59,264 nt of DNA from a virus (taxonomy: Duplodnaviria; Caudoviricetes): positions 1 to 59,264 of IMG/VR virus record IMGVR_UViG_3300009481_000013, one strand, 5' to 3'. Both the position numbers and the translations under genes were made by a program. The notes below the pieces were generated by a model that ran no database searches, was not told the origin of the DNA, and saw only the letters and a program-made list of their open reading frames with translations. Below are positions 6,021 to 38,191 of the stretch, piece after piece (the first letter of the stretch is position 1; each line of letters opens with the position of its first letter).

Positions 6021-6574
6021 GTAAAATGATTTTTGACACACTAAAATATGCTTGGACAGACCTTGAAACCACAGGAACCGAAACAGAAGGTGGTGGTATT
6101 TTGGAAGTAGCTTGCATTATCACTGATAGAGCCCTTCAAGAGCTAGGTCGTTTTCACACTCTTGTCCATCCAGGTGATGAAGCGCTAAAAAATATGAGTC
6201 CGTATGTAGCAAATATGCACACTTCGAACAACCTCTTGAGAGACATTCAGGCTCTTGATGTCCCTTCTATTGAAGAAGCAGATGAAAAGTTTGCCGATTT
6301 CCTTAGGCATTACAATCAAGGTGAGCCAAAAGATATCATCCTCGCAGGAAACACCGTTGAGGGAGTAGATTTACCTTTCATTAAGTCTTTTATGCCATTA
6401 TCAAATAAAGAAAAACATTATAGGTATTTTGATATCACTTCTTTAAGGATTGGTGGTGGAATCAAGAATGGGCACGATGTAGATTTCGAAAAATCTCGTG
6501 GTCATCGAGCTTTTGACGATGTGCTTGAGTGTATTGAAGAGTTCAAATTTCTCAGAGCACAAATTCTCAAATAA
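6017..6574 (+). CDS. orn: oligoribonuclease (DEDDh exonuclease)
   Basis: WTDLETTG, ILEVACIITD, MHTSNNL, LAGN, HYRYFD, HRAFDDVLECIEE. Confidence 0.9.
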   Translation: MSKMIFDTLKYAWTDLETTGTETEGGGILEVACIITDRALQELGRFHTLVHPGDEALKNMSPYVANMHTSNNLLRDIQALDVPSIEEADEKFADFLRHYNQGEPKDIILAGNTVEGVDLPFIKSFMPLSNKEKHYRYFDITSLRIGGGIKNGHDVDFEKSRGHRAFDDVLECIEEFKFLRAQILK

Positions 6575-6892
6575 ATGTTTAAAGTTTTATTTTTTAGCTC
6601 TCTATTTTTTACCCTTCAACCAACAGTTTATCAAGCCACTTGGATTACGACTGGTTATGGTTACGGAGCACCAAAGAAAAGTATCATAGTAGTAAAACCG
6701 TGTCAACCAGTAAATCACTACGATAAAGCAAAGTTTAATCGATTTTGTGCAAACGCGGGTAAATACCTTAAACATCAAAAAGGAAGTATGTTCTGCACTC
6801 ACTCAGGTCTACTTACAAAAGAGAAATGTGAAGATGTTGTTCGTCAAAATACGAAAGGAAAACGAACTATTTTAAGACTAATCGAAGATTGA
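6575..6892 (+). CDS. exported hypothetical protein
   Basis: N-terminal signal-like hydrophobic stretch. Confidence 0.5.
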   Translation: MFKVLFFSSLFFTLQPTVYQATWITTGYGYGAPKKSIIVVKPCQPVNHYDKAKFNRFCANAGKYLKHQKGSMFCTHSGLLTKEKCEDVVRQNTKGKRTILRLIED

Positions 6893-8540: not shown

Positions 8541-8993
8541 ATGATACTAGCTTTAAATGAATGGAAGGCTTTTCTTGGAGAAGCTAAAAGAAAAGAATGG
8601 GACTCAGCCCATGTCATCTTGATTAAGGGCAAAAAGGTACTTCTAGTACAGCGCTCTATCGACGATAGCTGGATGCCTGAGAAATGGGCAACTCCAGGTG
8701 GAGAGCTTGATAAAGGTGAGACTCTTGAGCAAGGTCTCAAAAGAGAAATAAAAGAAGAAACTGGTCTTGAAGTAGAACTTGAAGATCTGTTTTATCTTCC
8801 AGCCATTAGTTATAAAATGAAGCACGCTTTCTACGCTTGTAATAAAAGCGCAGGCAAGTTAGAGATTAATGCTAATGGTGTTCACGAACACGAAGCAGCA
8901 AAATGGGTTACCCAAAGTGAAATCACTAATATGGATACTGTTCCAGATATGTTAGAAGTTGTGAAAGAAGCGTTTAAGGTTGTGGGAAAATAA
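8541..8993 (+). CDS. NUDIX hydrolase
   Basis: Nudix box GGELDKGETLEQGLKREIKEETGL. Confidence 0.92.
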   Translation: MILALNEWKAFLGEAKRKEWDSAHVILIKGKKVLLVQRSIDDSWMPEKWATPGGELDKGETLEQGLKREIKEETGLEVELEDLFYLPAISYKMKHAFYACNKSAGKLEINANGVHEHEAAKWVTQSEITNMDTVPDMLEVVKEAFKVVGK

Positions 8994-9618
8994 GATGACA
9001 ATGAAGCTATTATTTGAAAACTGGAGAGGATTTTTGAACGAAGGAATGCAACAGATTGAGAATCTTCCTGAAGGGATTGGTGTACTCATCAATACGGAAA
9101 ATTCTCCTGAAGAAATCCGCATCTCTTATGTAGATTTGCATACTGCCAGTCCTTCTAGTGAGCCGCAAGGAGAAGTGACAATCGGAAATACACCTCAAGA
9201 ATATGCTGATTGGTATGGGGCTTGCTTGAATGCTTGGGTAGTAACTGGAGCAAAGGCTTCAAATGGTTGGGGACCTTTGTTGTACGATGTTGCTATCGAA
9301 TGGGCTTCAATGAGAGGTTCAGGAGTTGGTTTAGCACCCGATCGTTCTTTAGTGAGTGATGAGGCATATGCTGTGTGGGACAAATATGCCCATAGAGGCG
9401 ATGTTGAAGCGATTCAAATGGACAATCCAGAGAATGAATTAACTTCAGACGAGTCAGATAATTGCGCTCAAAACTCATCTGTTGCGGCAGCAAACAATCA
9501 AGGTGTAGAATGGCATCAAACTCCTCTTTCCAAAGTCTATAAGAAGAAAGGGGCTAAAATGATTAAAGCCCTTCAGGCTGCTCAGAAACTAGTTTTCAGA
9601 GAAGAAGGTGATCTGTGA
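8980..9618 (+). CDS. GNAT-like fold protein, probable virion protein
   Basis: GWGPLLYDVAIE resembles acetyl-CoA motif A; paralogous to C-terminal domain of 10109-11413; N-terminal ENWRGFLNE tag. Confidence 0.5.
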   Translation: MWENKMTMKLLFENWRGFLNEGMQQIENLPEGIGVLINTENSPEEIRISYVDLHTASPSSEPQGEVTIGNTPQEYADWYGACLNAWVVTGAKASNGWGPLLYDVAIEWASMRGSGVGLAPDRSLVSDEAYAVWDKYAHRGDVEAIQMDNPENELTSDESDNCAQNSSVAAANNQGVEWHQTPLSKVYKKKGAKMIKALQAAQKLVFREEGDL

Positions 9619-10124
9619 TTGTAATCAAGATTGGAAAAAAGTGTTCTGAGGATATTTTACCTGGCGGCTTAGCAGACAAGAATAGTCCTAGCGATTTTGA
9701 TCCAAAACATTTGGCAAAGAGCACCAAAGTAGAAATGGAGCACGTTAACGATAAAAAAATTGCTCAAGAGATTGCGATGGATCACTTAACAGAAGATCCA
9801 AAATATTATGACAAATTGAAAAAAATAGAAACTGAATCTTTAGCAGATTCAAGAGTGAAGATTTATAGAGCCTTGCCTGCAACTACAACTGAAATACGAC
9901 ACGATGATTATGTTACATTGTCTCGTAAATTTGCAGGCGACCACGCAGTAACTTCAGCTGTTTATAATGAAGAGCCTTTTTATGTGGTTTGGGCTTTCGT
10001 AGCTAAAACAGATATTGTAGAAGCATCAAATCCTGGTGAATACAAATATATGGGAAAACCCTTTAAGGCTAAAGCGAGCCAAATAGCAAACGAAAATGGA
10101 GTCCTTAAGTGGTTAAAAATATGA
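9615..10124 (+). CDS. DUF5661-like domain fused to putative ADP-ribosyltransferase-like domain
   Basis: KVEMEH…EIAMDHLTEDPKYY; then IYRA…YVTLSR…GEY (R-S/T-E-like). Confidence 0.5.
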   Translation: MIVIKIGKKCSEDILPGGLADKNSPSDFDPKHLAKSTKVEMEHVNDKKIAQEIAMDHLTEDPKYYDKLKKIETESLADSRVKIYRALPATTTEIRHDDYVTLSRKFAGDHAVTSAVYNEEPFYVVWAFVAKTDIVEASNPGEYKYMGKPFKAKASQIANENGVLKWLKI

Positions 10125-11413
10125 ATTCACTTGTTGAAAACTGGAAGGCATATCTTGAAGAATTGGTAGACCCAAGTTCTATTGATTTGTCTAGCTTTGC
10201 AATCAAAGATCAATTGAACCCTCAAGTATGGGTTGGTGGTCGTTTGCGTCCAGAAGTAAAAGAGCGCCTTATAGAGATTGCTAACGACTTCTTTGAAGCT
10301 CTAGAACTTCCTGATGTAGAGTTGAAGGATATCACCTTTACAGGTTCCTTGGCGAACTTCACGTGGTCCCAATTTTCTGATATCGACCTTCACTTGATTG
10401 TTGATTTTAACGAAGTTGACACAAACGTGGAATTGGTTAAGAATTGGCTTGATCAAGCTCGCGCAGTTTGGAACAAAAGTCACGATATTGAAATCGGGGG
10501 ACACGAGGTAGAGATTTACGTACAAAACGAAACAGAACCTCACATTTCAACAGGTGTTTATTCGGTATTGAATGATGCTTGGTTGACAAAACCTGATAAA
10601 GAAAAACCTACAGTCAAATGGGATGAGGTTCAGGAAAAGGCTGCATCCTTGATGAACGAGATTGAAGAGGTTGAAAAGATGTTTTCGTCAGGTGAAACGG
10701 AAGCAGCTTTAGAATACGCAGAAAGACTTAAAGAGAAGATTCGCAAGTTTAGAAAGAGTGGACTGGAAAAAGGAGGCGAGTTTTCTGTTGAGAATATCGC
10801 GTTTAAAACCCTTCGCAGAAACGGATACCTTGAAAAACTGTCTAAACTGAAGGATGATGCATATGATCAAAATATGTCTCTTCAAGAGTCGCGTAAATGG
10901 CAAAGCTTTATGAATGAAGCAGCTGTTACGCCAGAACAGATTCCTCAAGGTTGGAAGTTCACAATTAAAGAACAACCGAATCGAGTGGTTGTTGTTTTGA
11001 AAGACCATAGAGACAAAGGAGTAGGTAAAGTTCTTATTCAAAATGATACCAGACTACCTTGCATTGATGCTCTCTCTGTTCTCTCCTCTTACGCACCGAA
11101 AGGATATGGTCCTTTGCTTTATGATTTAGCAATGGAACTTTCTGGAGATAGGGGCATTTATTCAGATCGCACCAGTGTAAGTGACCAAGCTCAAAAGATT
11201 TGGGAATATTATGAGCATCATAGGAGTGACGTAGAATCGTTTCATCCTCTTGAATTGATCGATACAACGGAATCAGAATGTGTGGAAGATATCACTTTTA
11301 TGTTTGGAGAAGAATGGGAAGATGATCCACTTTCTAAAGTTTATAAAAAGAAAACTGACAAACTAGCTACTCTTGAAGCTCTCAGAACGGCAAACAAGAT
11401 AACATTTGTCTAG
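10109..11413 (+). CDS. Pol-beta family nucleotidyltransferase fused to GNAT-like domain
   Basis: TGSLANF…SDIDLH…EVEIY; C-terminal GYGPLLYDLAME…SDRTSVS. Confidence 0.8.
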   Translation: MVKNMNSLVENWKAYLEELVDPSSIDLSSFAIKDQLNPQVWVGGRLRPEVKERLIEIANDFFEALELPDVELKDITFTGSLANFTWSQFSDIDLHLIVDFNEVDTNVELVKNWLDQARAVWNKSHDIEIGGHEVEIYVQNETEPHISTGVYSVLNDAWLTKPDKEKPTVKWDEVQEKAASLMNEIEEVEKMFSSGETEAALEYAERLKEKIRKFRKSGLEKGGEFSVENIAFKTLRRNGYLEKLSKLKDDAYDQNMSLQESRKWQSFMNEAAVTPEQIPQGWKFTIKEQPNRVVVVLKDHRDKGVGKVLIQNDTRLPCIDALSVLSSYAPKGYGPLLYDLAMELSGDRGIYSDRTSVSDQAQKIWEYYEHHRSDVESFHPLELIDTTESECVEDITFMFGEEWEDDPLSKVYKKKTDKLATLEALRTANKITFV

Positions 11414-11416
11414 TTA

Positions 11417-13939
11417 TTGGAGCGAGGAAACACAATGAATCAATTATGGGAACAAAAATGGCGTTCGTTTAGAAAAACTGAACCCCAATCAGCACCGGAG
11501 TACAACAAACCAAAATCTATTGATGAGGGCGGTCCGCTTCTTAGAGAACTTACAGAATTTGAATATGATAAGGTTGCTCACGTTGTTGGAAATGTAGACG
11601 CTGATGACTTATCGTTTGACAACATTTTTCAAGGTAAAAAAAGAATTGTTATCCCTTTTGTAGCTGGTCCAACTGGAGAGTTAAATAAGATAATCACATA
11701 TTTTGATAAAGCCGGTTACGAAATCGATTGGAACAATGGTCTAGTCGGAAAAGAGATAGAAACTCAGCGCGGGAAACAAATGCGCAAATCAAAGATTGGG
11801 AAATTTTTAAATAAAGCTATCTCTGTTCAAAAAAAGTTTGAAGCTTTGGCACTGACTCATAGCACTGCTGTTGGAAATGCACAAGCTCTTAGGAAAGAGG
11901 AAACAGAAGAAATAAAACAAAATCTTATTCGTCAAGGCGAAGGGGGGGGAAGTTATCGCATTAACCAAGAGGCTCGGAATATTTGGTTTGATAATGATAG
12001 AACTCCCGAATATAAAGTTATTCAAAAAACAATAGATGATTTTGAACTTAAAATGGATCAACTGCGCCGCAAAATTAATGATGAATTTGGTTCTTTTGTT
12101 TCTGCAAGAGAACTTGAAGCTATGCTTAAGTTTTGGAACGAAAAAGGAGACTTTTATCGCCAGAATCCTCAAGCAATTCAAGGCGAGGAAGGCAAATATT
12201 CACTTGTAATTACTCGTGCGCCGATTGATGTTCTTCGAATGAGCGATTTTGACGACATTACTTCGTGTCACAGCCCTCCCAACCGTGGCTCGCCGAATGG
12301 CGGGGGTTATTATGCTTGTGCAATAGCTGAAGCTAATGGTCACGGTCCTATTGTATATGTTGTAGAGAATGTTGACATTCCAGAAGATTTTGATTGGGAA
12401 GAAGACGAAGTATTTACAGACGATCATCGCGGAGTGAATGGGGTAGAGCCTATTTCTAGACTTAGAGTTAGAAAATTCGTAGACCCAGATAAAGAAATAA
12501 GTTTTGCTATTCCAGAGCTTAGAACTTATGGTAGAAAATTTCCTAATCTTGGAAATGCGGTTAATAATTTCTTTAGAAAATCTCAACCAGAAATAATGGC
12601 TAATCCTCCTTCTGACAAATTGTATAAATTGGAACGATATGGCGGCTCATATTCGGACAATACAGATGATAATCTTTTTAGAAGATTTTTCGACAATTCT
12701 ATTGCATATACTGGTAGTGCAAATCATCTAAATGACGATGAAGAAGAAGAATATGATGATGAGGAAGAGGCAGATTTAGAAGCTGAATATGAAGCAGAAT
12801 GCGAAGGAATTGATGCTCAATACAACAATCATCATACTCTTGAACACGCTTACGCAAGCTATGAAATTGAAGATTATGGTGACGGCGTAGCCGTCTTTAT
12901 GAACGGCGGAATGTCTATTGAGATTGATGAAGATGAAATGATCAATACTTTGCCCGATTGGAGAGGTCAGAACGAACTTTCAAAGCAGATTCAGGGTGAG
13001 TTAGATGTGTCTGTGAATGATATAAATTTTCAAGAATTTAACGGCTCACTTCACGTTCAACTAGATGCTTATACGAGCAACATCTATGAAAATACTCCAT
13101 CAGCTTATGAAGATTTTCTGAGATATAACGTTAAAGAATTAGATGATGGATATACTCAAATTTTAGCAACTGTTCGAAAAGTTTTAGTTGCGAATAAGAT
13201 TTTAGCACAAAACGCATTTGGAAGCCTCACGCTTGATGCCGAGGCACTTGATGATATTGGAGATAAATATAAACACTTTGACATAGAATATCACGATGGT
13301 GAACTTACTATCGATCTTAAAGAAGAATCAAAAATTCCTATTGACGTATCGCTTATTGTTGAGTTAAACAAAGAACTGGAGGGAACCCCTCAAAATGATG
13401 ATGCAAAATACAACGATTCTGTTCTCAGAGCAGGTCGACACAGTTTAAAACATTTTATTAAAACTCTCGAAGCAGACGGCTTTAAACATCAAGTGTGGTC
13501 AGGTATTGTCAGAATGATTGAGAATGCAGCTAAACAGATTGATCTTCCAGGTTTAGAAAATGACGTAAATAACGAAGTTAGCATTAAAATGCCTTTTGAA
13601 GATTTGAGTTTTTCGCCAGCAGGCAGGGGAATTACCCAAAATAATATTACAAAACCTTGGATTGCTTATACTGATCTGACAATGACTCTTACAGGTCTTG
13701 AAGAAAACGAAGATGTCATCATTGCAGTGAAGCTTATCGAATATATTGACGAACATTTTGAACGTGTTGCGGAATTCGTTAATAAAGAATTCAACAATTT
13801 TGCTAAAAGCGTAAACGATGCGATAAATAATGTGACCAGTTTATTTGAAAAAGAAAATATGGTAAATGAAGTGTTAAAAAGTATTCAGCCAAAAACGAAG
13901 AAAATAGTTATTGGTTTGCAAAGAAAAAAAACTAGTTAA
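11417..13939 (+). CDS. large hypothetical protein (probable virion protein; likely start 11435)
   Basis: 840-aa ORF, EQKWRSF tag, acidic linker; GAGG RBS before ATG 11435. Confidence 0.75.
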   Translation: MERGNTMNQLWEQKWRSFRKTEPQSAPEYNKPKSIDEGGPLLRELTEFEYDKVAHVVGNVDADDLSFDNIFQGKKRIVIPFVAGPTGELNKIITYFDKAGYEIDWNNGLVGKEIETQRGKQMRKSKIGKFLNKAISVQKKFEALALTHSTAVGNAQALRKEETEEIKQNLIRQGEGGGSYRINQEARNIWFDNDRTPEYKVIQKTIDDFELKMDQLRRKINDEFGSFVSARELEAMLKFWNEKGDFYRQNPQAIQGEEGKYSLVITRAPIDVLRMSDFDDITSCHSPPNRGSPNGGGYYACAIAEANGHGPIVYVVENVDIPEDFDWEEDEVFTDDHRGVNGVEPISRLRVRKFVDPDKEISFAIPELRTYGRKFPNLGNAVNNFFRKSQPEIMANPPSDKLYKLERYGGSYSDNTDDNLFRRFFDNSIAYTGSANHLNDDEEEEYDDEEEADLEAEYEAECEGIDAQYNNHHTLEHAYASYEIEDYGDGVAVFMNGGMSIEIDEDEMINTLPDWRGQNELSKQIQGELDVSVNDINFQEFNGSLHVQLDAYTSNIYENTPSAYEDFLRYNVKELDDGYTQILATVRKVLVANKILAQNAFGSLTLDAEALDDIGDKYKHFDIEYHDGELTIDLKEESKIPIDVSLIVELNKELEGTPQNDDAKYNDSVLRAGRHSLKHFIKTLEADGFKHQVWSGIVRMIENAAKQIDLPGLENDVNNEVSIKMPFEDLSFSPAGRGITQNNITKPWIAYTDLTMTLTGLEENEDVIIAVKLIEYIDEHFERVAEFVNKEFNNFAKSVNDAINNVTSLFEKENMVNEVLKSIQPKTKKIVIGLQRKKTS

Positions 13940-13943
13940 AGAT

Positions 13944-14516
13944 ATGAAGATGTTAAAAGCTATATTTAGTGGTATTCTGTTGTTGGGGATGATTTCTTGT
14001 TCAAATTTGTCGGATGTCTCGACTTGTGGTCTAGATTATGAACCAATTCCCGGTTATAGTAATGCAGGTCAAAAGGTGATTGGAGATTACTTCGACGCAG
14101 AAAGAACTTCTATAGCTATGGATATTTTTTATGACAAGTGGGTTGAAAAATCAGAAGATTACGACGAAGTAGCATCAATTTTGTCAGGTGTTTGTGTTAA
14201 GTGGGAGCCTTATCCTTGGATTGTAGAAAGTTTAGGAAATTATGAAGATGGGGTACCTAAGCGTGCTGCTGGCTTAACTGAATCTAGACGATTAGTTAGA
14301 GTGTTTATCGGAGAAAATGAAGATAGTTTGGGAAATGAAATAGAAAGAACAATTTCGGCAACTGCCTTGTGGCACGAATTAGTTCATTTAACGCTTTGGA
14401 ACTTGAATGATGAACCAGACCCAGATCACGAAGGTTCTTCTTATAGTGGTTGGGAAACGGACGAAACTCAGGTAATCATCGATTCTAGAATAGAAGGAAA
14501 CCATTTGGGAATTTAA
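13944..14516 (+). CDS. lipoprotein Zn metallopeptidase-like
   Basis: signal peptide ending MISC; HELVH…DPDH. Confidence 0.6.
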   Translation: MKMLKAIFSGILLLGMISCSNLSDVSTCGLDYEPIPGYSNAGQKVIGDYFDAERTSIAMDIFYDKWVEKSEDYDEVASILSGVCVKWEPYPWIVESLGNYEDGVPKRAAGLTESRRLVRVFIGENEDSLGNEIERTISATALWHELVHLTLWNLNDEPDPDHEGSSYSGWETDETQVIIDSRIEGNHLGI

Positions 14517-14520
14517 AAAA

Positions 14521-15102
14521 ATGTATGAAAAGAAACGTATAAATGAAACTAAAAACTTTCTCAAAGGATGGGGAACTTATCTCAACGAAGCAGGCGGTCT
14601 CGATGGAGTCAACCGTTCTAAAATTGCTCAACTTCTTAAGCGCCTAGGTAAAAGCGAACAACCTCCTCCGATTCCAGATGATGCTATGCCTGCTGATGGC
14701 GCGGATGATGACAATGTTGTAGATGATGTTGATGTAATAGATTCAGGAAACGATCTTTCTATGGGACAAATAATGGTCGTTTTAAATCAGTTGCGCAATA
14801 CAGGCGGTCTATCATTTGAGGATTTGGGAAATGATCTGCTTAATCAAGTGAGAGATTCTATTAAAAAAACTATTACAACTTTAGCTAAAAGACCAGGTGT
14901 TCGTTCAAGTGACATAGCTCAAGATAAACAAAACATCGAAGAGGTTGGCGGCAGAATCTTAAAACGCCTTGAAGTGGCATTTGAAAAACTCTTTCAACCA
15001 AGGGCGCTTGTGAATCTTCAAGAAGTCCTTCAGGTTATTGAAAGCGAGGAACATAAAGTTCTTAAAGAGCACAAAAAACTTATTATAAGGATTAAAGACT
15101 GA
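14521..15102 (+). CDS. hypothetical (probable virion) protein
   Basis: KGWGTYLNEA tag. Confidence 0.65.
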   Translation: MYEKKRINETKNFLKGWGTYLNEAGGLDGVNRSKIAQLLKRLGKSEQPPPIPDDAMPADGADDDNVVDDVDVIDSGNDLSMGQIMVVLNQLRNTGGLSFEDLGNDLLNQVRDSIKKTITTLAKRPGVRSSDIAQDKQNIEEVGGRILKRLEVAFEKLFQPRALVNLQEVLQVIESEEHKVLKEHKKLIIRIKD

Positions 15103-15103
15103 C

Positions 15104-15553
15104 ATGAGTGATGACGTGCTTAAAGATTTGTCTGATCAGTTTTACCCCTATGCTCAACAGAAAATGGGGTTTGACAAGCCAGTTCAAATAAATTACTTGA
15201 ATGATCCACAAAATGCTGAAGATCCTCTTGGAAAAACTGCATACTACGATCCAGAAGCTATGGAAATCTCACTTTTTGTTGATGGAAGGCACCCAAAAGA
15301 CATCCTTCGTTCTTTATCTCACGAGTTAGTTCATCATACACAAAATTGTCGCGGCGAGTTTGCAAACGGCTTTATAGCAACAGAAGGGTATGCGCAAGAA
15401 GATGAACATCTCCGCGAAATGGAACGCGAAGCATACGAACAGGGCAATCTTGTTTTCAGAGACTTTGAAGATGAGTTTAAAGCTAATAAAAAAAAGAAAA
15501 GTTTAAAGTTAGAAATTAAAATTAACAGAGGAAAGAAATTATGTCTAAGTTAG
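15104..15553 (+). CDS. zincin-like metallopeptidase
   Basis: LRSLSHELVHHTQ…EREAY. Confidence 0.75.
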   Translation: MSDDVLKDLSDQFYPYAQQKMGFDKPVQINYLNDPQNAEDPLGKTAYYDPEAMEISLFVDGRHPKDILRSLSHELVHHTQNCRGEFANGFIATEGYAQEDEHLREMEREAYEQGNLVFRDFEDEFKANKKKKSLKLEIKINRGKKLCLS

Positions 15554-15683
15554 AAGATCATTTTGATATTCGCAGAATCAAGCTTAATAAACAATTGATG
15601 GATAAATATGGCTATAAGCCAAAAAAAGATACCAACAAGGAAGTTCTTAAGAACGAACCCAAAACAAACAAGGAGAAAAAATA

Positions 15684-15953
15684 ATGACATCACCAAAACA
15701 ACGCAAAAAGCGACGACTTTTGAGAGCGTTACAAGAACTACAAACAGCCGCACCTGAAGTGGTTGAAGTCGCGCCAGAGGAGCCAAAGAAAGCTTTACCA
15801 GAAGTAAAGAAAGAAGTTCCAAAAGTAGCAGCTAAGAAGGCTCCTAAGAAGCCAGCTGCTAAACCTGCAAAGGTGTCAGCGAAACCTGCCAAGAAGGCAG
15901 ACAAGCCAGCTGAGGATTCTGTAGAGGCATCTACCAAAGCTACCAAGGAGTAG
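15684..15953 (+). CDS. Lys/Ala/Pro-rich (histone H1-like) protein
   Basis: AAKKAPKKPAAKPAK low-complexity; AGGAG RBS. Confidence 0.6.
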   Translation: MTSPKQRKKRRLLRALQELQTAAPEVVEVAPEEPKKALPEVKKEVPKVAAKKAPKKPAAKPAKVSAKPAKKADKPAEDSVEASTKATKE

Positions 15954-15959
15954 AAGATT

Positions 15960-16241
15960 GTGCCCGACTTCAGAAAAATGACCAAAAAGTTTCTTTTAGG
16001 AGAAACTAAAAGTAAAGAGCCAGGAATGATGAGTCATCTTCAAGCTCTTGAAGAGACGCTCGGCTTATTGCAGCCTCGCTCTAAATCCGATTCCCGTCGC
16101 GTTGAGATTGCGCGGGAACATTTGCGTGGAATGAAGCGTCAATATCGTCGCATTATACAAGAGAATAAAAAGTTGCAAGAAAAGGTTAGCCTTTTAGAGG
16201 AAGAAAAAGCAAATGCACTCATTGAAGAAGATTATAAATGA
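15960..16241 (+). CDS. coiled-coil hypothetical protein
   Basis: ORF with heptad pattern. Confidence 0.6.
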   Translation: MPDFRKMTKKFLLGETKSKEPGMMSHLQALEETLGLLQPRSKSDSRRVEIAREHLRGMKRQYRRIIQENKKLQEKVSLLEEEKANALIEEDYK

Positions 16242-19200
16242 GGGCGGCGCCGCTGCCGTTGCTCTAACAAATAAAAAACTAGCTCCACATCCAAACAATG
16301 CTGAAAGAGATTTGCAATATGGCAAAATCTCGGATGCTGAGCTGGATTCTATTTTTCCTAGAGAATATGGAACTATGACAGATGCTTCTGACGATACATA
16401 CGTTGGAAGGATTTTTCACGCTCTTGGTTCGCAAGGATTGATAGACACTTCTCATTCTCCCTCATATTCGATGGGCTCCACACGTCTGGCAGCACTCAAA
16501 AAATATGGTCGTGGTTCTATCGGGCTAGACAAGTATGAAACTGATGACGTAATCGCAACCGTAAGCGGAAAAAAGACTGAATATGGTGATTTAGATATTG
16601 ATCTTCTTTTTACTGGCGACAAAAAGTCTATTGCCAACGCAATTGAAGCTATTGACCCGTCTGTTTATGCAGCAGCAGCTGGAGGTCCCAAAGCTGTTGC
16701 TGTAGCTATTCGAATTGGAAACAAAGTTATCCAAGTAGACTTGGTTGATATCTCTGAAGGTCAAGCGGCACAGGACTTTCTTTGGAAGAGCAGTTTTGTA
16801 GACTTGGCAGCTGGAGTTAAAGGTGCTTTTTCTATTATTTTGCTGCGAGCAGTAGCTTCTGTTATGGAAATTGGTCCTAGTGATACCCTTGAGTCTCTTA
16901 TTCAATATGCTCAAGACAATCCAGAGTCTCGATTTGCCAAAGATTTCAATAAAAAGCTAAAACTAAATTATCAACCAGTTGGTTCGCGCTTTTCTCTTGG
17001 TTCAAAAGGTTTAAAGCTTATTGTAGATTTAGAAAAGCCAAGTAAAAAAGATCCTAACAAAAAAACTCAATCAAAAATCGATTTTGAAGATGCAGTGCGT
17101 CAAGGATACGAAGATTTAGATGAATTGGCGCAAATAATTCTTCAAAATCGAAATGCTGACTCATCTACGATTTATAGTGCAACGAAACTAGCTAGTTTTA
17201 TCAAAAAACACGTCCCTCAAAGCAAAATCAATCTGATTTGGAGCGCTTTTCTAAAAAGTACTAAAGATACGCTTGAAGGAAAAATCGATCAACACGATTA
17301 TGAGACTGGAATGGCTTTTTTGGGCAATTTACTCGGAACTGAGTGGACTCCTGAAGCAGCTGCAACCTTAAATGAAGCTCGTGAAGATATTGGGCGATTT
17401 ATTGGTAAAAATAAGTTCTCCAATAAGAATATGCTGTTGCTATTGAGGGCTTTGGTTTCCGAATCGGGCAACGAAGGAAAGACCAGTTTTGATATTAAGC
17501 TTTCAGAAAATCCAGCGGTTGATATGGTTGAGAAAATGGATTCATCGTTCAGTCACTTTGGTATCGACCCAGAAGGCAAGTTCTTTATGGAAACCAGCAA
17601 TAGCGGTCCTGTAACGAAAGAGAACTTGGAAGAAAAGTTCGGAACTAAGCCAGAGTTTTTCCACGATATCTATGAATCCTTCAAATGGTTGTCCAACAGT
17701 AAAGAGGTTCAAGGTTCTCTTCAAGAAATTTTCAAACAAATCGGACCAATTAGATATGATGCTGAACTCTTTCCAGTTTTGACTCACGAAGGTGATGCTT
17801 CAGGGAATATTGTATTCGTTGGCACACCTTATTCGAGAGAGAAGCTTGGAAGAGTTGGTGGTTTCGTAGTATTTAAAGCTCAAAAATGGAGTCCTGAAGA
17901 GCTTAGTTGGTATCGACCAGAACCAGCAGAGAACGTAGCTTTGGTGAAGATGATTAAACAGTCTTCTTTCTCAGGCAACTGGGCTGGAGATTGGAGAGTT
18001 TATACCAACGAAGAAGATATGAAACACAACGTCACGCTTCACGTTGAGTTTGATGAGTTGTTGTCAAGCTATTTGAGCAGTGAAGAGAGCTTCAATAAAG
18101 CTCTGGCACTTGTCTCTACACGTAAAAACAATCCCGATAAGGATGAACTGCTCTTTTCTCTAAACAGAATACGTGAGGTGTTGCAAGATAAGCTTAATTC
18201 TTATGCTTCTGGAGCTGAATCTATTCTAGGTGGTGAAGGCTCTTACATCGAAGGCGTTGTCCTCCGAGTAAAGAAGAACAATGGTGATATTTTCGAAGCA
18301 AAAGGGACTTCATACAAGTTTGATGAGCACAAGGAAGAACTTTGGGAGGATCGCGTCAATGTACTTAATCTTACCAAGACTTTTGAAAAGAAACTAATGA
18401 TTGAGGTTCTAGAACTTAGAACTGATCATCCAGCAACATTGAACAAAGCAATCAAGCAAGTGTCCCTTGAGTTTAACGCTACCTCAAGCGGCGATGAAGC
18501 GAAGGTGGAGTTTATTAGAGAGCTGTTACCTGTTATCACCGACAAGACAACTGGGTTTGATAAAATAAAACCTGAAACAATCAACCTAATCAATGAAACA
18601 GAAGCTCTTTACAAAGAACTCCTTCAGCAGTTTGAAGCGAACAAGCCAAATCTCGATCCTGACACTATCAGGAAAACCCAAGCTTTGTATGACTCTTCTG
18701 CTGAGTCTCTAAGTAAGTACAAAGCAGCTGCCAGCTCTACTCTTGAGAGTATGTCTTATTTCGTATACCTTATTGGTTTAACACTGAACAGAAGAATCGA
18801 CAGATTTGTGAATTTTGGAAGAACTAAGCCACGCCCAGAGAAGAAAGATGTTCCTAAAGTTATCTTTTGGAATGGCAGGGCTCAACCTTGGCACAAAGGT
18901 CACGATGCTATGGTGCAGAAAGGCAAAAGTATGCTCAATACACTTGATGCTGAAGCGGTAATGATTATGATTGTCAAAGGTGGTAAAGCTTCTCAAGACA
19001 AATCGGTAAATCCATTGTCAGAGTCAGATCAAATCAACTTGATTAGTGCAATCTACGAAAATGATCCGCAAGTTATCGTTTCAGACAAGATTTTGAAGCG
19101 TTCATTCATTGGAGAGATTGCAAATGTTGTCTACAGCACTGGATATGAGGTTGTAGGTTGGCTTGCTGGTGCAGATAGGATCGATAGCTACAGAAAAGGA

Positions 19201-20364
19201 TTGAATTCTTTTAATCCCGAAATGTGGGAAAAAGATCACGCTTATTCGCCATTTGACGCCGACGATGCTGGACACTCCACAGTTAAGATGATCGAGACTC
19301 CTCGCGTCATGAGCGGAACCAAGGCGCGTGAGCTAGTGAATCAGGTAGAGGTTCCTGAATGGATTGATGCTGTAGCTCCAGATGGTATTGGGGAAGCTGC
19401 TCAACAAGCTTATGTCGAAGTTTATGACAAACTTCGAAACCCTGAGCTTTCTGAAATAGTGTTTGATGCTCTTGAAGAGATGTCATCAGCTGGTGGTGGT
19501 GCTGTTAGTGGTTATCCTGGTGGTTTCAAAGACCCAGACGCAGATGAGGGCACTCTAATCAGAGAAGAGGAAACAGATGGTGACGAACTACTTAATACAG
19601 AGGTAAATGAAATGGATCGTGAAGTATTTATGAAAGAAATGCAACTTAGGAAGTTTATTCGTCGTGCAATCAATATTGTCGAGAGTAAGAATCAAAAACA
19701 GCGCTTTTTGCAAGAATCTAAAGTGCGAAAGTACGTACGAAAGCTTATTCTTGAAGCAGAAGAAGATCATCCTCACGATTCTACCGGTATCAATGTTCTG
19801 GAAGACCTTTTGAAGAAAATCATCCCAGTATTTGAGAAAGATTACAAATCGCTCACTACGGATGCAAACCAACGTAAATCTTTCCGTTCTCACGTTATCA
19901 ATGCAGTGCAAAATTCTCTTGCTCCTTCACGAGCTGAGATTAGTATTAATCCAGAAGCTCCACAAGGACCTGCTGTAGGGATGACTGAACAGGAAGATGA
20001 ACTTGAGATGGATATTCCTACTGAAAGGGATCTTGATCCTAAATTTATCGATATTGATCCAGCATCTAAAGAAGCTCCAGAAATTGCTCCAGAAGAGAAG
20101 TTTGGCATTCCTGGTGAAGACGAAACAGGACGTAATGTCGCTATGAGAAGTTGGGATCAAGTAGAAACTTCAGTTATTGATGCCTATAATGTTTTGTCAA
20201 ATGCACAGGATCGGGAAATGTTTTATGATTATCTTATTACAAATCTAAAACTATATTTCGATAAAATGGAAGAAGAACTTTCTCCAGGTGTTCAGGAACC
20301 TGAGTCAGAAATCTATCAGCAACAAAAAACAGCAGAACAACCTTCTTCTGATTTTAATCTTTAA
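16213..20364 (+). CDS. multidomain protein: Pol-beta NTase + RNA-ligase-like + HxGH cytidylyl/adenylyltransferase + acidic C-terminal domain
   Basis: MGS…YGDLDIDL…QVDL; VEKMDS…DAELF…IEGVVLR…EAKG; GRAQPWHKGH…GADR…SGTKAR. Confidence 0.75.
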   Translation: MHSLKKIINEGGAAAVALTNKKLAPHPNNAERDLQYGKISDAELDSIFPREYGTMTDASDDTYVGRIFHALGSQGLIDTSHSPSYSMGSTRLAALKKYGRGSIGLDKYETDDVIATVSGKKTEYGDLDIDLLFTGDKKSIANAIEAIDPSVYAAAAGGPKAVAVAIRIGNKVIQVDLVDISEGQAAQDFLWKSSFVDLAAGVKGAFSIILLRAVASVMEIGPSDTLESLIQYAQDNPESRFAKDFNKKLKLNYQPVGSRFSLGSKGLKLIVDLEKPSKKDPNKKTQSKIDFEDAVRQGYEDLDELAQIILQNRNADSSTIYSATKLASFIKKHVPQSKINLIWSAFLKSTKDTLEGKIDQHDYETGMAFLGNLLGTEWTPEAAATLNEAREDIGRFIGKNKFSNKNMLLLLRALVSESGNEGKTSFDIKLSENPAVDMVEKMDSSFSHFGIDPEGKFFMETSNSGPVTKENLEEKFGTKPEFFHDIYESFKWLSNSKEVQGSLQEIFKQIGPIRYDAELFPVLTHEGDASGNIVFVGTPYSREKLGRVGGFVVFKAQKWSPEELSWYRPEPAENVALVKMIKQSSFSGNWAGDWRVYTNEEDMKHNVTLHVEFDELLSSYLSSEESFNKALALVSTRKNNPDKDELLFSLNRIREVLQDKLNSYASGAESILGGEGSYIEGVVLRVKKNNGDIFEAKGTSYKFDEHKEELWEDRVNVLNLTKTFEKKLMIEVLELRTDHPATLNKAIKQVSLEFNATSSGDEAKVEFIRELLPVITDKTTGFDKIKPETINLINETEALYKELLQQFEANKPNLDPDTIRKTQALYDSSAESLSKYKAAASSTLESMSYFVYLIGLTLNRRIDRFVNFGRTKPRPEKKDVPKVIFWNGRAQPWHKGHDAMVQKGKSMLNTLDAEAVMIMIVKGGKASQDKSVNPLSESDQINLISAIYENDPQVIVSDKILKRSFIGEIANVVYSTGYEVVGWLAGADRIDSYRKGLNSFNPEMWEKDHAYSPFDADDAGHSTVKMIETPRVMSGTKARELVNQVEVPEWIDAVAPDGIGEAAQQAYVEVYDKLRNPELSEIVFDALEEMSSAGGGAVSGYPGGFKDPDADEGTLIREEETDGDELLNTEVNEMDREVFMKEMQLRKFIRRAINIVESKNQKQRFLQESKVRKYVRKLILEAEEDHPHDSTGINVLEDLLKKIIPVFEKDYKSLTTDANQRKSFRSHVINAVQNSLAPSRAEISINPEAPQGPAVGMTEQEDELEMDIPTERDLDPKFIDIDPASKEAPEIAPEEKFGIPGEDETGRNVAMRSWDQVETSVIDAYNVLSNAQDREMFYDYLITNLKLYFDKMEEELSPGVQEPESEIYQQQKTAEQPSSDFNL

Positions 20365-21545: not shown

Positions 21546-21597
21546 TTTGAACGTTTAACAACCGAAAGAATCAAGGGACTCGAAAGAGTCCTTTTTT
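21539..21597 (+). terminator. overlapping antiterminator/terminator (attenuator)
   Basis: CCCTTGATT/AATCAAGGG competes with AGGGACTC-GAAA-GAGTCCTT-TTTT. Confidence 0.75.
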
Positions 21598-21629
21598 ATT
21601 AGATACTTAGGAGAAACACAACAATAGGC

Positions 21630-21658
21630 TTGACAAATAGCGCGCCGCCTGCTACAAT
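21630..21658 (+). promoter_or_regulatory. sigma70-type promoter
   Basis: TTGACA-17-TACAAT with TG extension. Confidence 0.8.
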
Positions 21659-21961: not shown

Positions 21962-22259
21962 GGGGGATCCATGGTTTCGACAGAGTAAGGAGAATGATTC
22001 ATACAAGGAAGCCAGCCAACAAATGCTTTAAATCAGTGTTGGAAAGTATAACTGCAAACGATAATGTTGAACAGTTCGCTCCTATTGCTCTAGCAGCGTA
22101 GAAAGCTGGGCGTCAACTGCCTGGGAACAGAAAGTTGAAAAGAGAAGAATGAATGGTAGAATGGAATGTCAGTTGCTGGACTCAAACCAGCTAACCTTGT
22201 AAGTATTTGAATTATTTGAGTTATTTTGGACAGCGGTTCGACTCCGCTATCCTCCACCA
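21962..22259 (+). ncRNA. ssrA: tmRNA; tag ANDNVEQFAPIALAA* (22054-22101)
   Basis: GGGGGAT/ATCCTCC acceptor with G3:U70, TTCGAC, GGAC-AGCGGTTCGACTCCGCT T-arm, ACCA; internal tag ORF ending ALAA. Confidence 0.95.
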
Positions 22260-22570: not shown

Positions 22571-22646
22571 GGCTTAGAGATCGAAGAGTCGAAATATCTG
22601 CCTGTCGAGCAGAATCAAACAGGTTCGAGTCCTGTCTAGGTCGCCA
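22571..22646 (+). tRNA. tRNA-Asp(GUC)
   Basis: CTGC-CTGTCGA-GCAG anticodon arm, T-arm, GCCA; weak D arm. Confidence 0.8.
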
Positions 22647-25013: not shown

Positions 25014-25101
25014 TAAGGGTTGGCAGAGTGGTTTAATGCGACCTCCTACAGGGAGGTGTCCCGAGACGGACCGTGGGTTCGAATCCCACACCCTACACTC
25101 A
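25014..25101 (+). tRNA. atypical class II tRNA with ACA anticodon (Cys decoder or pseudogene)
   Basis: ACCTC-CTACAGG-GAGGT arm, long variable arm, frayed acceptor, no CCA. Confidence 0.6.
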
Positions 25102-38151: not shown

Positions 38152-38191
38152 TCAAAAAGTTTTTGTTCTTTAAGAGCACTACTTACGGTAG

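Follow-up and report, generated by a model that had tools for sequence, protein, structure and literature searches.

A phage fusion of Pol-beta-type, RNA-ligase-like and HxGH nucleotidyltransferases that probably acts on nucleic-acid ends

The viral contig IMGVR_UViG_3300009481_000013 (Duplodnaviria; Caudoviricetes), analysed over its full length of 59,264 nucleotides and here called the window, carries a gene for a protein of 1383 residues, P0001, that probably mends or modifies nucleic-acid ends. P0001 consists of four modules: a Pol-beta-type nucleotidyltransferase at the N-terminus (the N domain), an RNA-ligase-like domain backed by an all-helical domain, an HxGH nucleotidyltransferase that resembles the nicotinamide mononucleotide adenylyltransferases (NMNATs), and an acidic C-terminal module (the C module). 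The catalytic residues of the three transferases are conserved among relatives, in which the same modules occur both fused and as separate neighbouring genes. Our favoured but still tentative proposal is that the gene, from a T4-like phage, unites four modules that cooperate and that would extend and seal nucleic-acid ends in a reaction coupled to adenylyl transfer of the NMNAT type.

Domains and catalytic residues of P0001

The open reading frame (ORF) had been described from the letters of the window alone, as a polyprotein of the same four parts, in what we call the sequence-only reading. It is real, every motif listed for it lies where it was placed, and the division into four is right, as judged from the motifs, from fold matches, from profiles and from relatives of the C module that stand alone. 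At E ≤ 1e-3, 74 proteins in the range of 760–2421 residues are related to P0001. Conservation is counted, unless stated otherwise, over the 26 rows of an alignment of relatives (A1; 33–76% identity), 25 of which cover the N domain; 12 related loci (L001–L012) were drawn from viral contigs. Several genes besides the enzyme are common to the window and to the contigs with L002 and L004. These two, among five contigs searched, also encode a capsid protein of the T4 gp23 type and a prohead protease of the gp21 type, the contig with L004 being the only one that is 92% complete; the relatives are thus of T4-like lineage. At the level of sequence the protein stands apart from named ones: phmmer against PDB sequences finds nothing at E ≤ 1, the A1 profile gives three chance-level rows only (E of at least 0.2), a cluster look-up for names of relatives returned none, and tblastn of P0001 against INPHARED phages finds no match, a search with P0050 matching 7 INPHARED records. 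Three DNA sequencing runs contain the stretch, and no RNA run is listed with it.

The second domain has the core of an RNA-ligase-type nucleotidyltransferase. Its motifs, E440-K441-M-D443-S444, D516-A-E518-L-F520, E680-G681-VVLR and K697, are those picked out by the sequence-only reading, and K441, D443, E518, E680, G681 and K697 are invariant in 26/26 rows. Ser replaces the Gly of KxDG in motif I, whereas E518, F535-V536, E680-G681 and K697 are invariant and follow in the order expected for motifs III to V, as assigned by spacing. An AlphaFold2 model of residues 386–880, built from 32 sequences, has a mean predicted local distance difference test score (pLDDT) of 90.7 and a predicted template-modelling score of 0.83. 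All ten Foldseek matches to the PDB at E ≤ 1e-3 are RNA ligases, with T4 Rnl2 (2hvq, 8.5e-6) the best and with Trypanosoma brucei REL1, the adenylyltransferase domain of the C. glabrata tRNA ligase, an archaeal RNA ligase and the Naegleria RNA ligase among the others. In a VIA search NgrRnl reaches Z 11.5 (196 residues, 3.7 Å), Rnl2 11.0, REL1 10.9 and Rnl1 9.2, while DNA ligases stay at or below 9.0; rows for the top three enzymes (NgrRnl, T4 Rnl2 and REL1) range over Z 11.5–10.7, 194–205 residues and 3.5–3.8 Å, and the ligase rows span model residues 4–325, which correspond to residues 389–710 of P0001. No OB domain follows the core in the model, only helices; residues 711–870 match generic helical bundles and, loosely, the C-domain of Rnl2 (2hvr_A, 275 residues, root-mean-square deviation 18 Å). 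On this model the domain is clearly of the Rnl2/Rnl5 structural kind, as a divergent branch, so that the ligase fold and the catalytic Lys (K441) on which the sequence-only reading depended are both present.

The N domain carries the Pol-beta motifs G88-S89, G125-D126-L-D128-I-D130 and Q174-V-D176. S89, D126, D128, D130 and D176 are near-invariant in A1 and invariant in the rows that contain the domain (A3), and S89, D126 and D176 are invariant over 13 loci. The spacing from G-S to D-x-D, usually about 10 residues in Pol-beta enzymes, is 37 here, owing to a helix inserted between them in the AlphaFold2 model of residues 1–390 (mean pLDDT 88.3). The list of weak Foldseek matches to this model is made up of FAM46A/TENT5, TUT4, PolX, pol beta, a tRNA-processing (CCA-type) enzyme and CD-NTases, and a VIA search of 48,161 chains, independent of Foldseek, gives a best Z of 6.6 with nearly all of the top 33 rows being Pol-beta-fold nucleotidyltransferases. 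Matches in BFVD are uncharacterised phage proteins. Only 132 representatives out of 1.84 billion match, at E ≤ 1e-3, a profile built on the domain at 13 loci, and the Pfam cut-off for NTP_transf_2 is reached by 2 of 43 relatives scanned. We accept that the domain belongs to the Pol-beta superfamily, as the sequence-only reading had claimed from its motifs, because the list of modelled-fold matches, weak as these are, is uniform and because the G-S, the D-x-D and the third Asp are invariant. At L004 (7703–8662) the N domain is shorter and two of the three Asp residues of D-x-D-x-D are lost, which suggests that this copy may be inactive.

The HxGH domain was likewise named correctly in the sequence-only reading. 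H894, G896, H897, D988, R989, G1035, T1036 and R1039, all invariant in A1, lie in the motifs G888-RAQPW-H894-K-G896-H897, G986-A-D988-R989 and S1034-G1035-T1036..R1039. PHROG 'cytidyltransferase' families match the domain (phrog_3041 at 5.3e-15, phrog_395 at 9.2e-10); the Pfam model CTP_transf_like gives 15.2 bits on P0001 against a cut-off of 21 and exceeds it in 8 of 22 relatives; and among 26 members the NCBIfam NadM-type NMNAT/Nudix model matches 22, PRK01153 15 and arch_NMN_Atrans 8. The HxGH, NPLS and SGTxAR motifs resemble the signatures of archaeal-type NMNATs. The equivalog cut-offs of the NCBIfam NMNAT models are, however, unreached (15.9 bits against 397, for example; best member E 4.5e-6), and the domain looks like an archaeal or NadM-type NMNAT in sequence without being classifiable as an NMNAT.

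The association between ligase-like and HxGH domains recurs outside the immediate family. A second family, of 900–1050 residues, has only the HxGH and C parts in common with P0001; its N-terminal domain contains EKTDGQN, AEGFVF and YKFTG motifs, which identify it as another ligase-like domain. In Microcystis phage Mel-JY01, the sole cultured and named phage to match the pair, the order is reversed, with HxGH at residues 31–135 and a ligase-like domain at 236–638 (hhalign E 8e-40). The coupling therefore occurs in three architectures, which argues for a conserved, as yet unassayed, two-enzyme reaction, and this recurrent pairing is our strongest argument that the two domains may act together. 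With P0069, hhalign of A1 aligned the HxGH and C parts only, and a tie of the ligase domain to DUF6267, for which this gave no sign, was rejected. Three distant relatives have an insert of 0.75–1 kb between the ligase and HxGH parts (L010:4106-4851, L011:12506-13524 and L012:12501-13342); the L011 protein bears Pfam DUF5661.

The C module, noted in the sequence-only reading as an acidic domain, is a real and widespread module. It has 3234 shorter relatives at E ≤ 1e-3 (90% clustering), and among the matches listed most are of 245–300 residues and none is named. A hidden Markov model (HMM) of 103 stand-alone C modules matches the window (3e-98), the fused protein of L001 and separate ORFs in L002, L003 and L004, and in the ESM Atlas the module groups with viral 'hypothetical protein' clusters of 270–298 residues. 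A stand-alone C module, P0086, has no tblastn match in INPHARED. A possible role as scaffold was rejected, the HMM finding nothing at E ≤ 10 among 16 head-module proteins of the contig with L004. Complex prediction for the C module with the ligase and HxGH parts gave a score of 0.00, which is evidence for neither side.

Module junctions, candidate processing sites and an internal start

Comparison of the loci, by a tblastn frame map, scripts and the C-module HMM, shows that the modules part and join. All four are fused in the window and at L001. In three of the 12 loci (L002, L003 and L004) the C module has its own ORF immediately downstream, and in seven (L005–L008 and L010–L012) the N domain is encoded by a gene of its own next door. 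At L005–L008 the N-domain gene stops after ..GE, level with E388, and the gene that follows opens with M-P-R-E-G-I-G-R-F. Since the N domain and the C module exist as separate neighbouring genes in related contigs, P0001 is best seen as a fusion of cooperating proteins.

The sequence-only reading had also pointed to LxE sites at the junctions, TLNEA (residues 385–389, nt 17365–17379) and ALEEM (residues 1085–1089, nt 19465–19479). The first stands: outside the catalytic motifs, the only fully conserved [LIVM]xE sites are residues 386–388 and residues 8–10 (23/23 rows). At the second the site, residues 1087–1089, is kept in only 17 of 25 rows, and the linker peptide that begins there is found by a strict regular expression in 17 of the 26 rows of A1 and in 20 of the 22 rows of A4, one alignment for each of the two families. 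Both fully conserved sites lie in disordered segments, residues 1–10 having a mean pLDDT of 27 and residues 386–388 falling below 50 on both models. A leader with [LI]xE followed by GG is also present in L004, where it reads M-S-L-L-L-E then G-G, and in L010, L011 and L012. Excerpts of two papers on T4 describe a capsid-targeting sequence on the internal head proteins (PMC3012670, PMC5694885) and cleavage of Alt by gp21 at ITE-6 and LTE-619 (PMC5694885). Cleavage and packaging of P0001 are plausible, given that conserved [LIVM]xE sites lie in disordered segments and that relatives encode T4-type capsid protein and protease; judging from the junction sequences, we infer that a cut behind the Glu of each conserved [LI]xE junction probably sets the modules free.

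A further suggestion in the sequence-only reading, that CTACTTA (19588–19594), GAGGT and an in-frame ATG would allow the last domain to be made separately as well, receives only indirect support from the relatives. At L003 the start Met of the stand-alone C module aligns with M1134 and its ORF overlaps the stop of the enzyme gene; at L002 GAGGAG precedes the C-module ATG. In the window GAGGT may be plain Glu/Gly coding, and a scan for sigma-70-like sites, which did not extend to T4-type late promoters, finds none near 19560. CTACTTA at 19588 was rejected as a signal: it encodes a Leu-Leu-Asn that is conserved there, also in L001, and the heptamer is unenriched, with 9 matches in the window where 6.19 would be expected, a count reached in 13 of 100 shuffles.

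Proposed reaction and its alternatives

The substrates and reaction order that we infer for the end-extension and sealing proposal are as follows. The N domain would add nucleotides to a 3'-OH end or fill a short gap, and the ligase domain, as an ATP-type RNA ligase adenylylated on K441, would seal the resulting nick between 3'-OH and 5'-phosphate in RNA or in a duplex that contains RNA. A coupled adenylyl transfer would fall to the HxGH domain, which would make nicotinamide adenine dinucleotide (NAD) or a dinucleotide related to it, or else act on a 5'-phosphate. The modules would be cut apart after Glu at the [LI]xE junctions and perhaps carried in the capsid, like T4 Alt.

A number of observations weigh against this proposal. 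The chain includes neither an end-healing kinase nor a 2',3'-phosphoesterase, and the window offers just one candidate, a metallophosphoesterase encoded at a distance of 13 kb. At E ≤ 1, P0001 matches neither NTP_transf_2 nor an RNA-ligase model of Pfam, the curated RNA_ligase, RNA_lig_T4_1 and DNA_ligase_A_M included. Foldseek with the N-domain model finds nothing in the PDB at E ≤ 1e-3 (best E 0.017), and the VIA search has no row at Z ≥ 8 for this domain. Motif V of the ligase-like domain has a single Lys, K697, where Rnl2-type enzymes have two. The contig with L008 encodes three canonical RNA ligases as well, and the ligase-like domain may therefore have another task; the 92% complete contig with L004 encodes none. 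As regards processing, [LI]xE sites are unenriched in the protein as a whole (23 against about 18.6 expected from composition), P0049, a relative without the N domain, lacks a leader and has M-P-R-E-G as its very first residues, and no head gene, gp21-type protease and gp23-type capsid protein included, is present in the window, which is the whole contig record and is 33% complete by the CheckV estimate. To our knowledge, finally, no known pathway explains an NMNAT-like domain in end repair.

The resemblance to NMNATs could instead indicate rebuilding of NAD, or an NAD-linked counter-defence, in which the NMNAT-like core would make NAD from nicotinamide mononucleotide and ATP after host NADase defences, and the ligase-like domain would take NAD as AMP donor or adenylylate a small-molecule acceptor. 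We consider this unlikely, though a serious candidate. The NCBIfam matches and the motif resemblance described above speak for it, as do the name 'nicotinamide mononucleotide adenylyltransferase' that one source gives to relatives of about 1150 residues, the position of the HxGH and C-module pair as the most widely shared part of the family, and a NUDIX gene at 8541–8993; yet all the NMNAT matches lie far under the curated cut-offs, the ligase fold is nearest to polynucleotide ligases, the Pol-beta domain would be left without a role, and Nampt/NAPRTase (PF04095) is found in none of five relatives' contigs, the 92% complete one among them, compared with 8 of 14 control genomes. The Pol-beta domain does have a role if P0001 is a minimal PolX plus ligase, comparable to the base-excision repair sets of viruses, that fills gaps and seals nicks in the DNA of the phage genome, possibly on incoming DNA, and it is to PolX chains that this domain aligns longest (pol beta 175 residues, AsfvPolX 159 of 176, L. 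infantum pol beta 192, a range of 159–192 compared with about 100 for RNA terminal transferases). Weaker BFVD matches include a 'DNA polymerase-like protein' and pithovirus family X polymerases, and some Rnl2/Rnl5-type enzymes seal nicks with RNA 3' ends in hybrid duplexes. We nevertheless regard DNA repair as improbable: the Z scores for PolX (6.2–6.5) tie with those for RNA-specific terminal transferases (6.2–6.6), RNA ligases exceed DNA ligases by 1.5 to 2.5 Z units in comparisons with the ligase domain, and the modelled core lacks the OB domain behind it.

Modification of RNA 5' ends, with the ligase-like and NMNAT-like modules installing or removing an adenylyl or NAD-type cap, would make use of the coupling of these two domains in three architectures and of the fact that both enzyme classes form 5'-5' pyrophosphate links. 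Among the candidates for non-canonical capping in excerpts of a review (PMC8131947) are RNA ligases (A-pp-RNA) and also NMNATs, the latter marked 'capping of RNA not proved'. The case is one of analogy only, with no such enzyme known, it gives the N domain no role, and we allow it a slim chance. Slimmer still is the chance that the protein serves the tRNAs and tmRNA of the phage itself in maturation or repair, adding CCA or joining permuted pieces, as the sequence-only reading had suggested for this neighbour of an RNA island. The proximity itself is real: a tmRNA gene lies 0.5–2.8 kb downstream of the enzyme gene in the window and at L001–L004, it opens an island of 26 ARAGORN tRNA calls between 21962 and 43376, and T4 RNA ligases are known to repair tRNA. 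Maturation of permuted RNAs is, however, unsupported: the tmRNA is in one piece, and the island is set off from the gene block by a terminator-like and a strong promoter-like site. CCA addition fares no better, as CCA is already encoded in 21 of 22 Rfam-called tRNA genes and no Pfam CCA-enzyme family matches P0001 at E ≤ 1. No tmRNA was found in the flanks of L005–L012, some of which are short, and L008 has one tRNA there. Repair of damaged tRNA by the protein is possible.

Gene neighbourhood and comparison with known systems

The features discussed here are collected in Table 1; all genes of the window are on the + strand. The HExxH gene upstream is present at L001–L004, and its L004 homologue matches DUF6782 'putative metallopeptidase' (1.2e-5). 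Between this gene and that for P0001 is an ORF of 89 residues (15684–15953), basic and rich in Lys, Ala and Pro, with a composition that looks like that of a DNA-binding or internal protein. Farther upstream, a protein of 434 residues (10109–11413) has weak matches to NTP_transf_2 at residues 72–143 (E 0.011) and to GNAT acetyltransferases at 293–350, as well as a match to phrog_36119 (4e-49), and may be a second nucleotidyltransferase.

Table 1. Features of P0001 and of its surroundings in the window
Feature	Position (nt)	Strand	Basis and details
Whole ORF (P0001)	16213..20364	+	1383 aa, ATG start
N-terminal leader, aa 1-10	16213..16242	+	ends I-N-E then G-G; candidate propeptide, prohead-protease site
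Pol-beta-fold nucleotidyltransferase domain, aa 11-385	16243..17367	+	AlphaFold2 model and motifs; G88-S89, D126/D128/D130 (nt 16588-16602), D176
Junction L386-N-E388, N domain/ligase domain	17368..17376	+	[LIVM]xE in 24/24 rows
RNA-ligase-type nucleotidyltransferase domain, aa 389-710	17377..18342	+	K441 (nt 17533-17535), E518, F535, E680-G681, K697
All-helical domain behind ligase core, aa 711-870	18343..18822	+	long helices in model
HxGH nucleotidyltransferase, NMNAT-like, aa 875-1080	18835..19452	+	H894-x-G-H897 (nt 18892-18903), N933-P-L-S, S1034-G-T..R1039
Linker L-E-E-M-S-S-A-G-G-G-A-V-S-G, aa 1087-1100	19471..19512	+	strict regular expression
Acidic C module, aa 1134-1383	19612..20361	+	HMM and relatives
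GAGGT (19600-19604) and in-frame ATG of M1134 (19612-19614)	19600..19614	+	relic or active C-module start
Upstream neighbour, 149 aa, HExxH	15104..15553	+	candidate metallopeptidase; DUF6647 6.4e-5 (23.2 bits vs 24.1), Peptidase_M91 0.019
Two downstream genes, 163 aa and 123 aa	20514..21379	+	orthologues in L001-L004; second with weak HTH_8 match (Pfam)
Terminator-like hairpin (21573-21594), then TTGACA-17-TACAAT (21630-21658)	21573..21658	+	consensus scans only
One-piece transfer-messenger RNA (tmRNA), first gene of RNA island	21962..22259	+	ARAGORN; Rfam RF00023 99.4 bits, model 1-374 of 374

Five upstream genes in the region 8541–15102 share a leader, W-x-x-[FYW]-[LIR]-x-[ET], that lies in roughly the first 26 residues and mostly ends in L-x-E before G or A. 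They encode the NUDIX protein and ORFs of 212, 434, 840 and 193 residues, with starts near 8541, 9004, 10121, 11435 and 14521. The pattern occurs 8 times in the six frames of the window, 5 of these being the N-termini in question, and the same leader is seen at L001:531, L002:566 and 4127, and L003:2897; from its sequence it may be a targeting leader or propeptide. On the minus strand of a further locus, L021 (G002:66000-84000), two small head-module proteins (6282–6683 and 15319–15840) share a leader M-K-V-T-K-Q-[FY]-L. The capsid protein of L021 has a 10-residue leader that ends L-T-E before G, and adjoining its gene is an acidic ORF of 465 residues with 19 [LI]xE sites that looks like a scaffold.

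The RNA island shows some irregularities of its own. The 26 ARAGORN and 22 Rfam tRNA calls differ at about a dozen loci (22313–43376): an 85-nt 'tRNA-Cys' with anticodon ACA (25014–25098) is called by ARAGORN only, and calls at 22571, 27345, 32613 and 34177 by Rfam only. CTACTTA stands directly after -10-like boxes at 38179, 40762, 43515 and 44586 (+), in the case of 40762 after TTGACA, 17 nt and TAAGAT; such copies may mark transcription starts, although the heptamer is unenriched overall.

A bolder and rather improbable reading is that T4-like phages of lineages not in culture carry in their heads a protease-processed 'polyvalent' enzyme whose ligase-like and NMNAT-like pair would perform an undescribed reaction, and which would be delivered with the DNA and with the leader-sharing neighbours. 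Candidates for this reaction are the sealing of RNA at the expense of NAD produced in place, and NAD or adenylyl capping of RNA ends. If the [LI]xE junctions are real protease sites, the theme of T4 Alt and the internal proteins would extend to nucleic-acid enzymes, and they would provide a rule by which ejected proteins of T4-like phages not in culture could be recognised from sequence. A function for the C module would, in addition, annotate a very common phage gene with more than 3,000 unnamed relatives.

Each of the catalytic folds in P0001 is known, and their combination is new and unstudied; no literature that treats Pol-beta nucleotidyltransferase, RNA-ligase-like and NMNAT-like domains together was found in the texts searched, supplements not being covered. 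The ligase-like domain has the same nucleotidyltransferase fold as T4 Rnl2 and REL1 of the Rnl2 family and NgrRnl of the Rnl5 family (Z 10.7–11.5 over 194–205 residues), and shares with them the motif I Lys, the motif III Glu and the motif IV Glu-Gly and, with Rnl2, a helical rather than OB domain behind the core. It differs from them in its low identity (12–16%) and lack of a Pfam RNA-ligase match, in having K-M-D-S for KxDG, one motif V Lys and about 60 extra residues between motifs IIIa and IV, and in its place between two other transferases. The HxGH domain shares with the archaeal and NadM NMNATs the HxGH that follows G-R-x-Q-P, the N-P-[LF]-[ST] loop and S-G-T-x-x-R, and the NCBIfam enzyme models that match it are NMNATs only (22/26 members); its scores, however, are far under their cut-offs, it has no fused Nudix or kinase domain, and its partner in the chain is in every case a ligase-like domain, as a rule with the acidic C module in addition. 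The N domain, which has G-S, D-x-D and the third Asp on the strands expected from family X polymerases and terminal RNA nucleotidyltransferases, is set apart from other members of the Pol-beta superfamily by its 37-residue spacing, its Z scores of at most 6.6 and the small size of its family (132 representatives).

At the level of the whole protein, end-modifying enzymes and a ligase are likewise combined in one chain or operon in T4 Pnkp with Rnl1, bacterial Pnkp/Hen1, fungal Trl1 and bacterial LigD. In contrast to these, P0001 has no kinase, 2',3'-phosphoesterase or methyltransferase, and has a Pol-beta nucleotidyltransferase and an NMNAT-like domain instead. Polyvalent proteins, as described in excerpts of Iyer et al. 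2017 (PMC5512222), also combine several unrelated enzymatic domains in a single phage polypeptide, Pol-beta nucleotidyltransferases being among those listed, and about 35% of them are phage-encoded and 'likely to be packaged'. In those excerpts RNA ligases are not joined to such proteins and an NMNAT-type domain is unmentioned. P0001, only a candidate for packaging, differs also in having no MuF, portal or in-chain peptidase domain; its nearest peptidase link to the polyvalent type is the adjacent HExxH gene, just under the Pfam cut-off.

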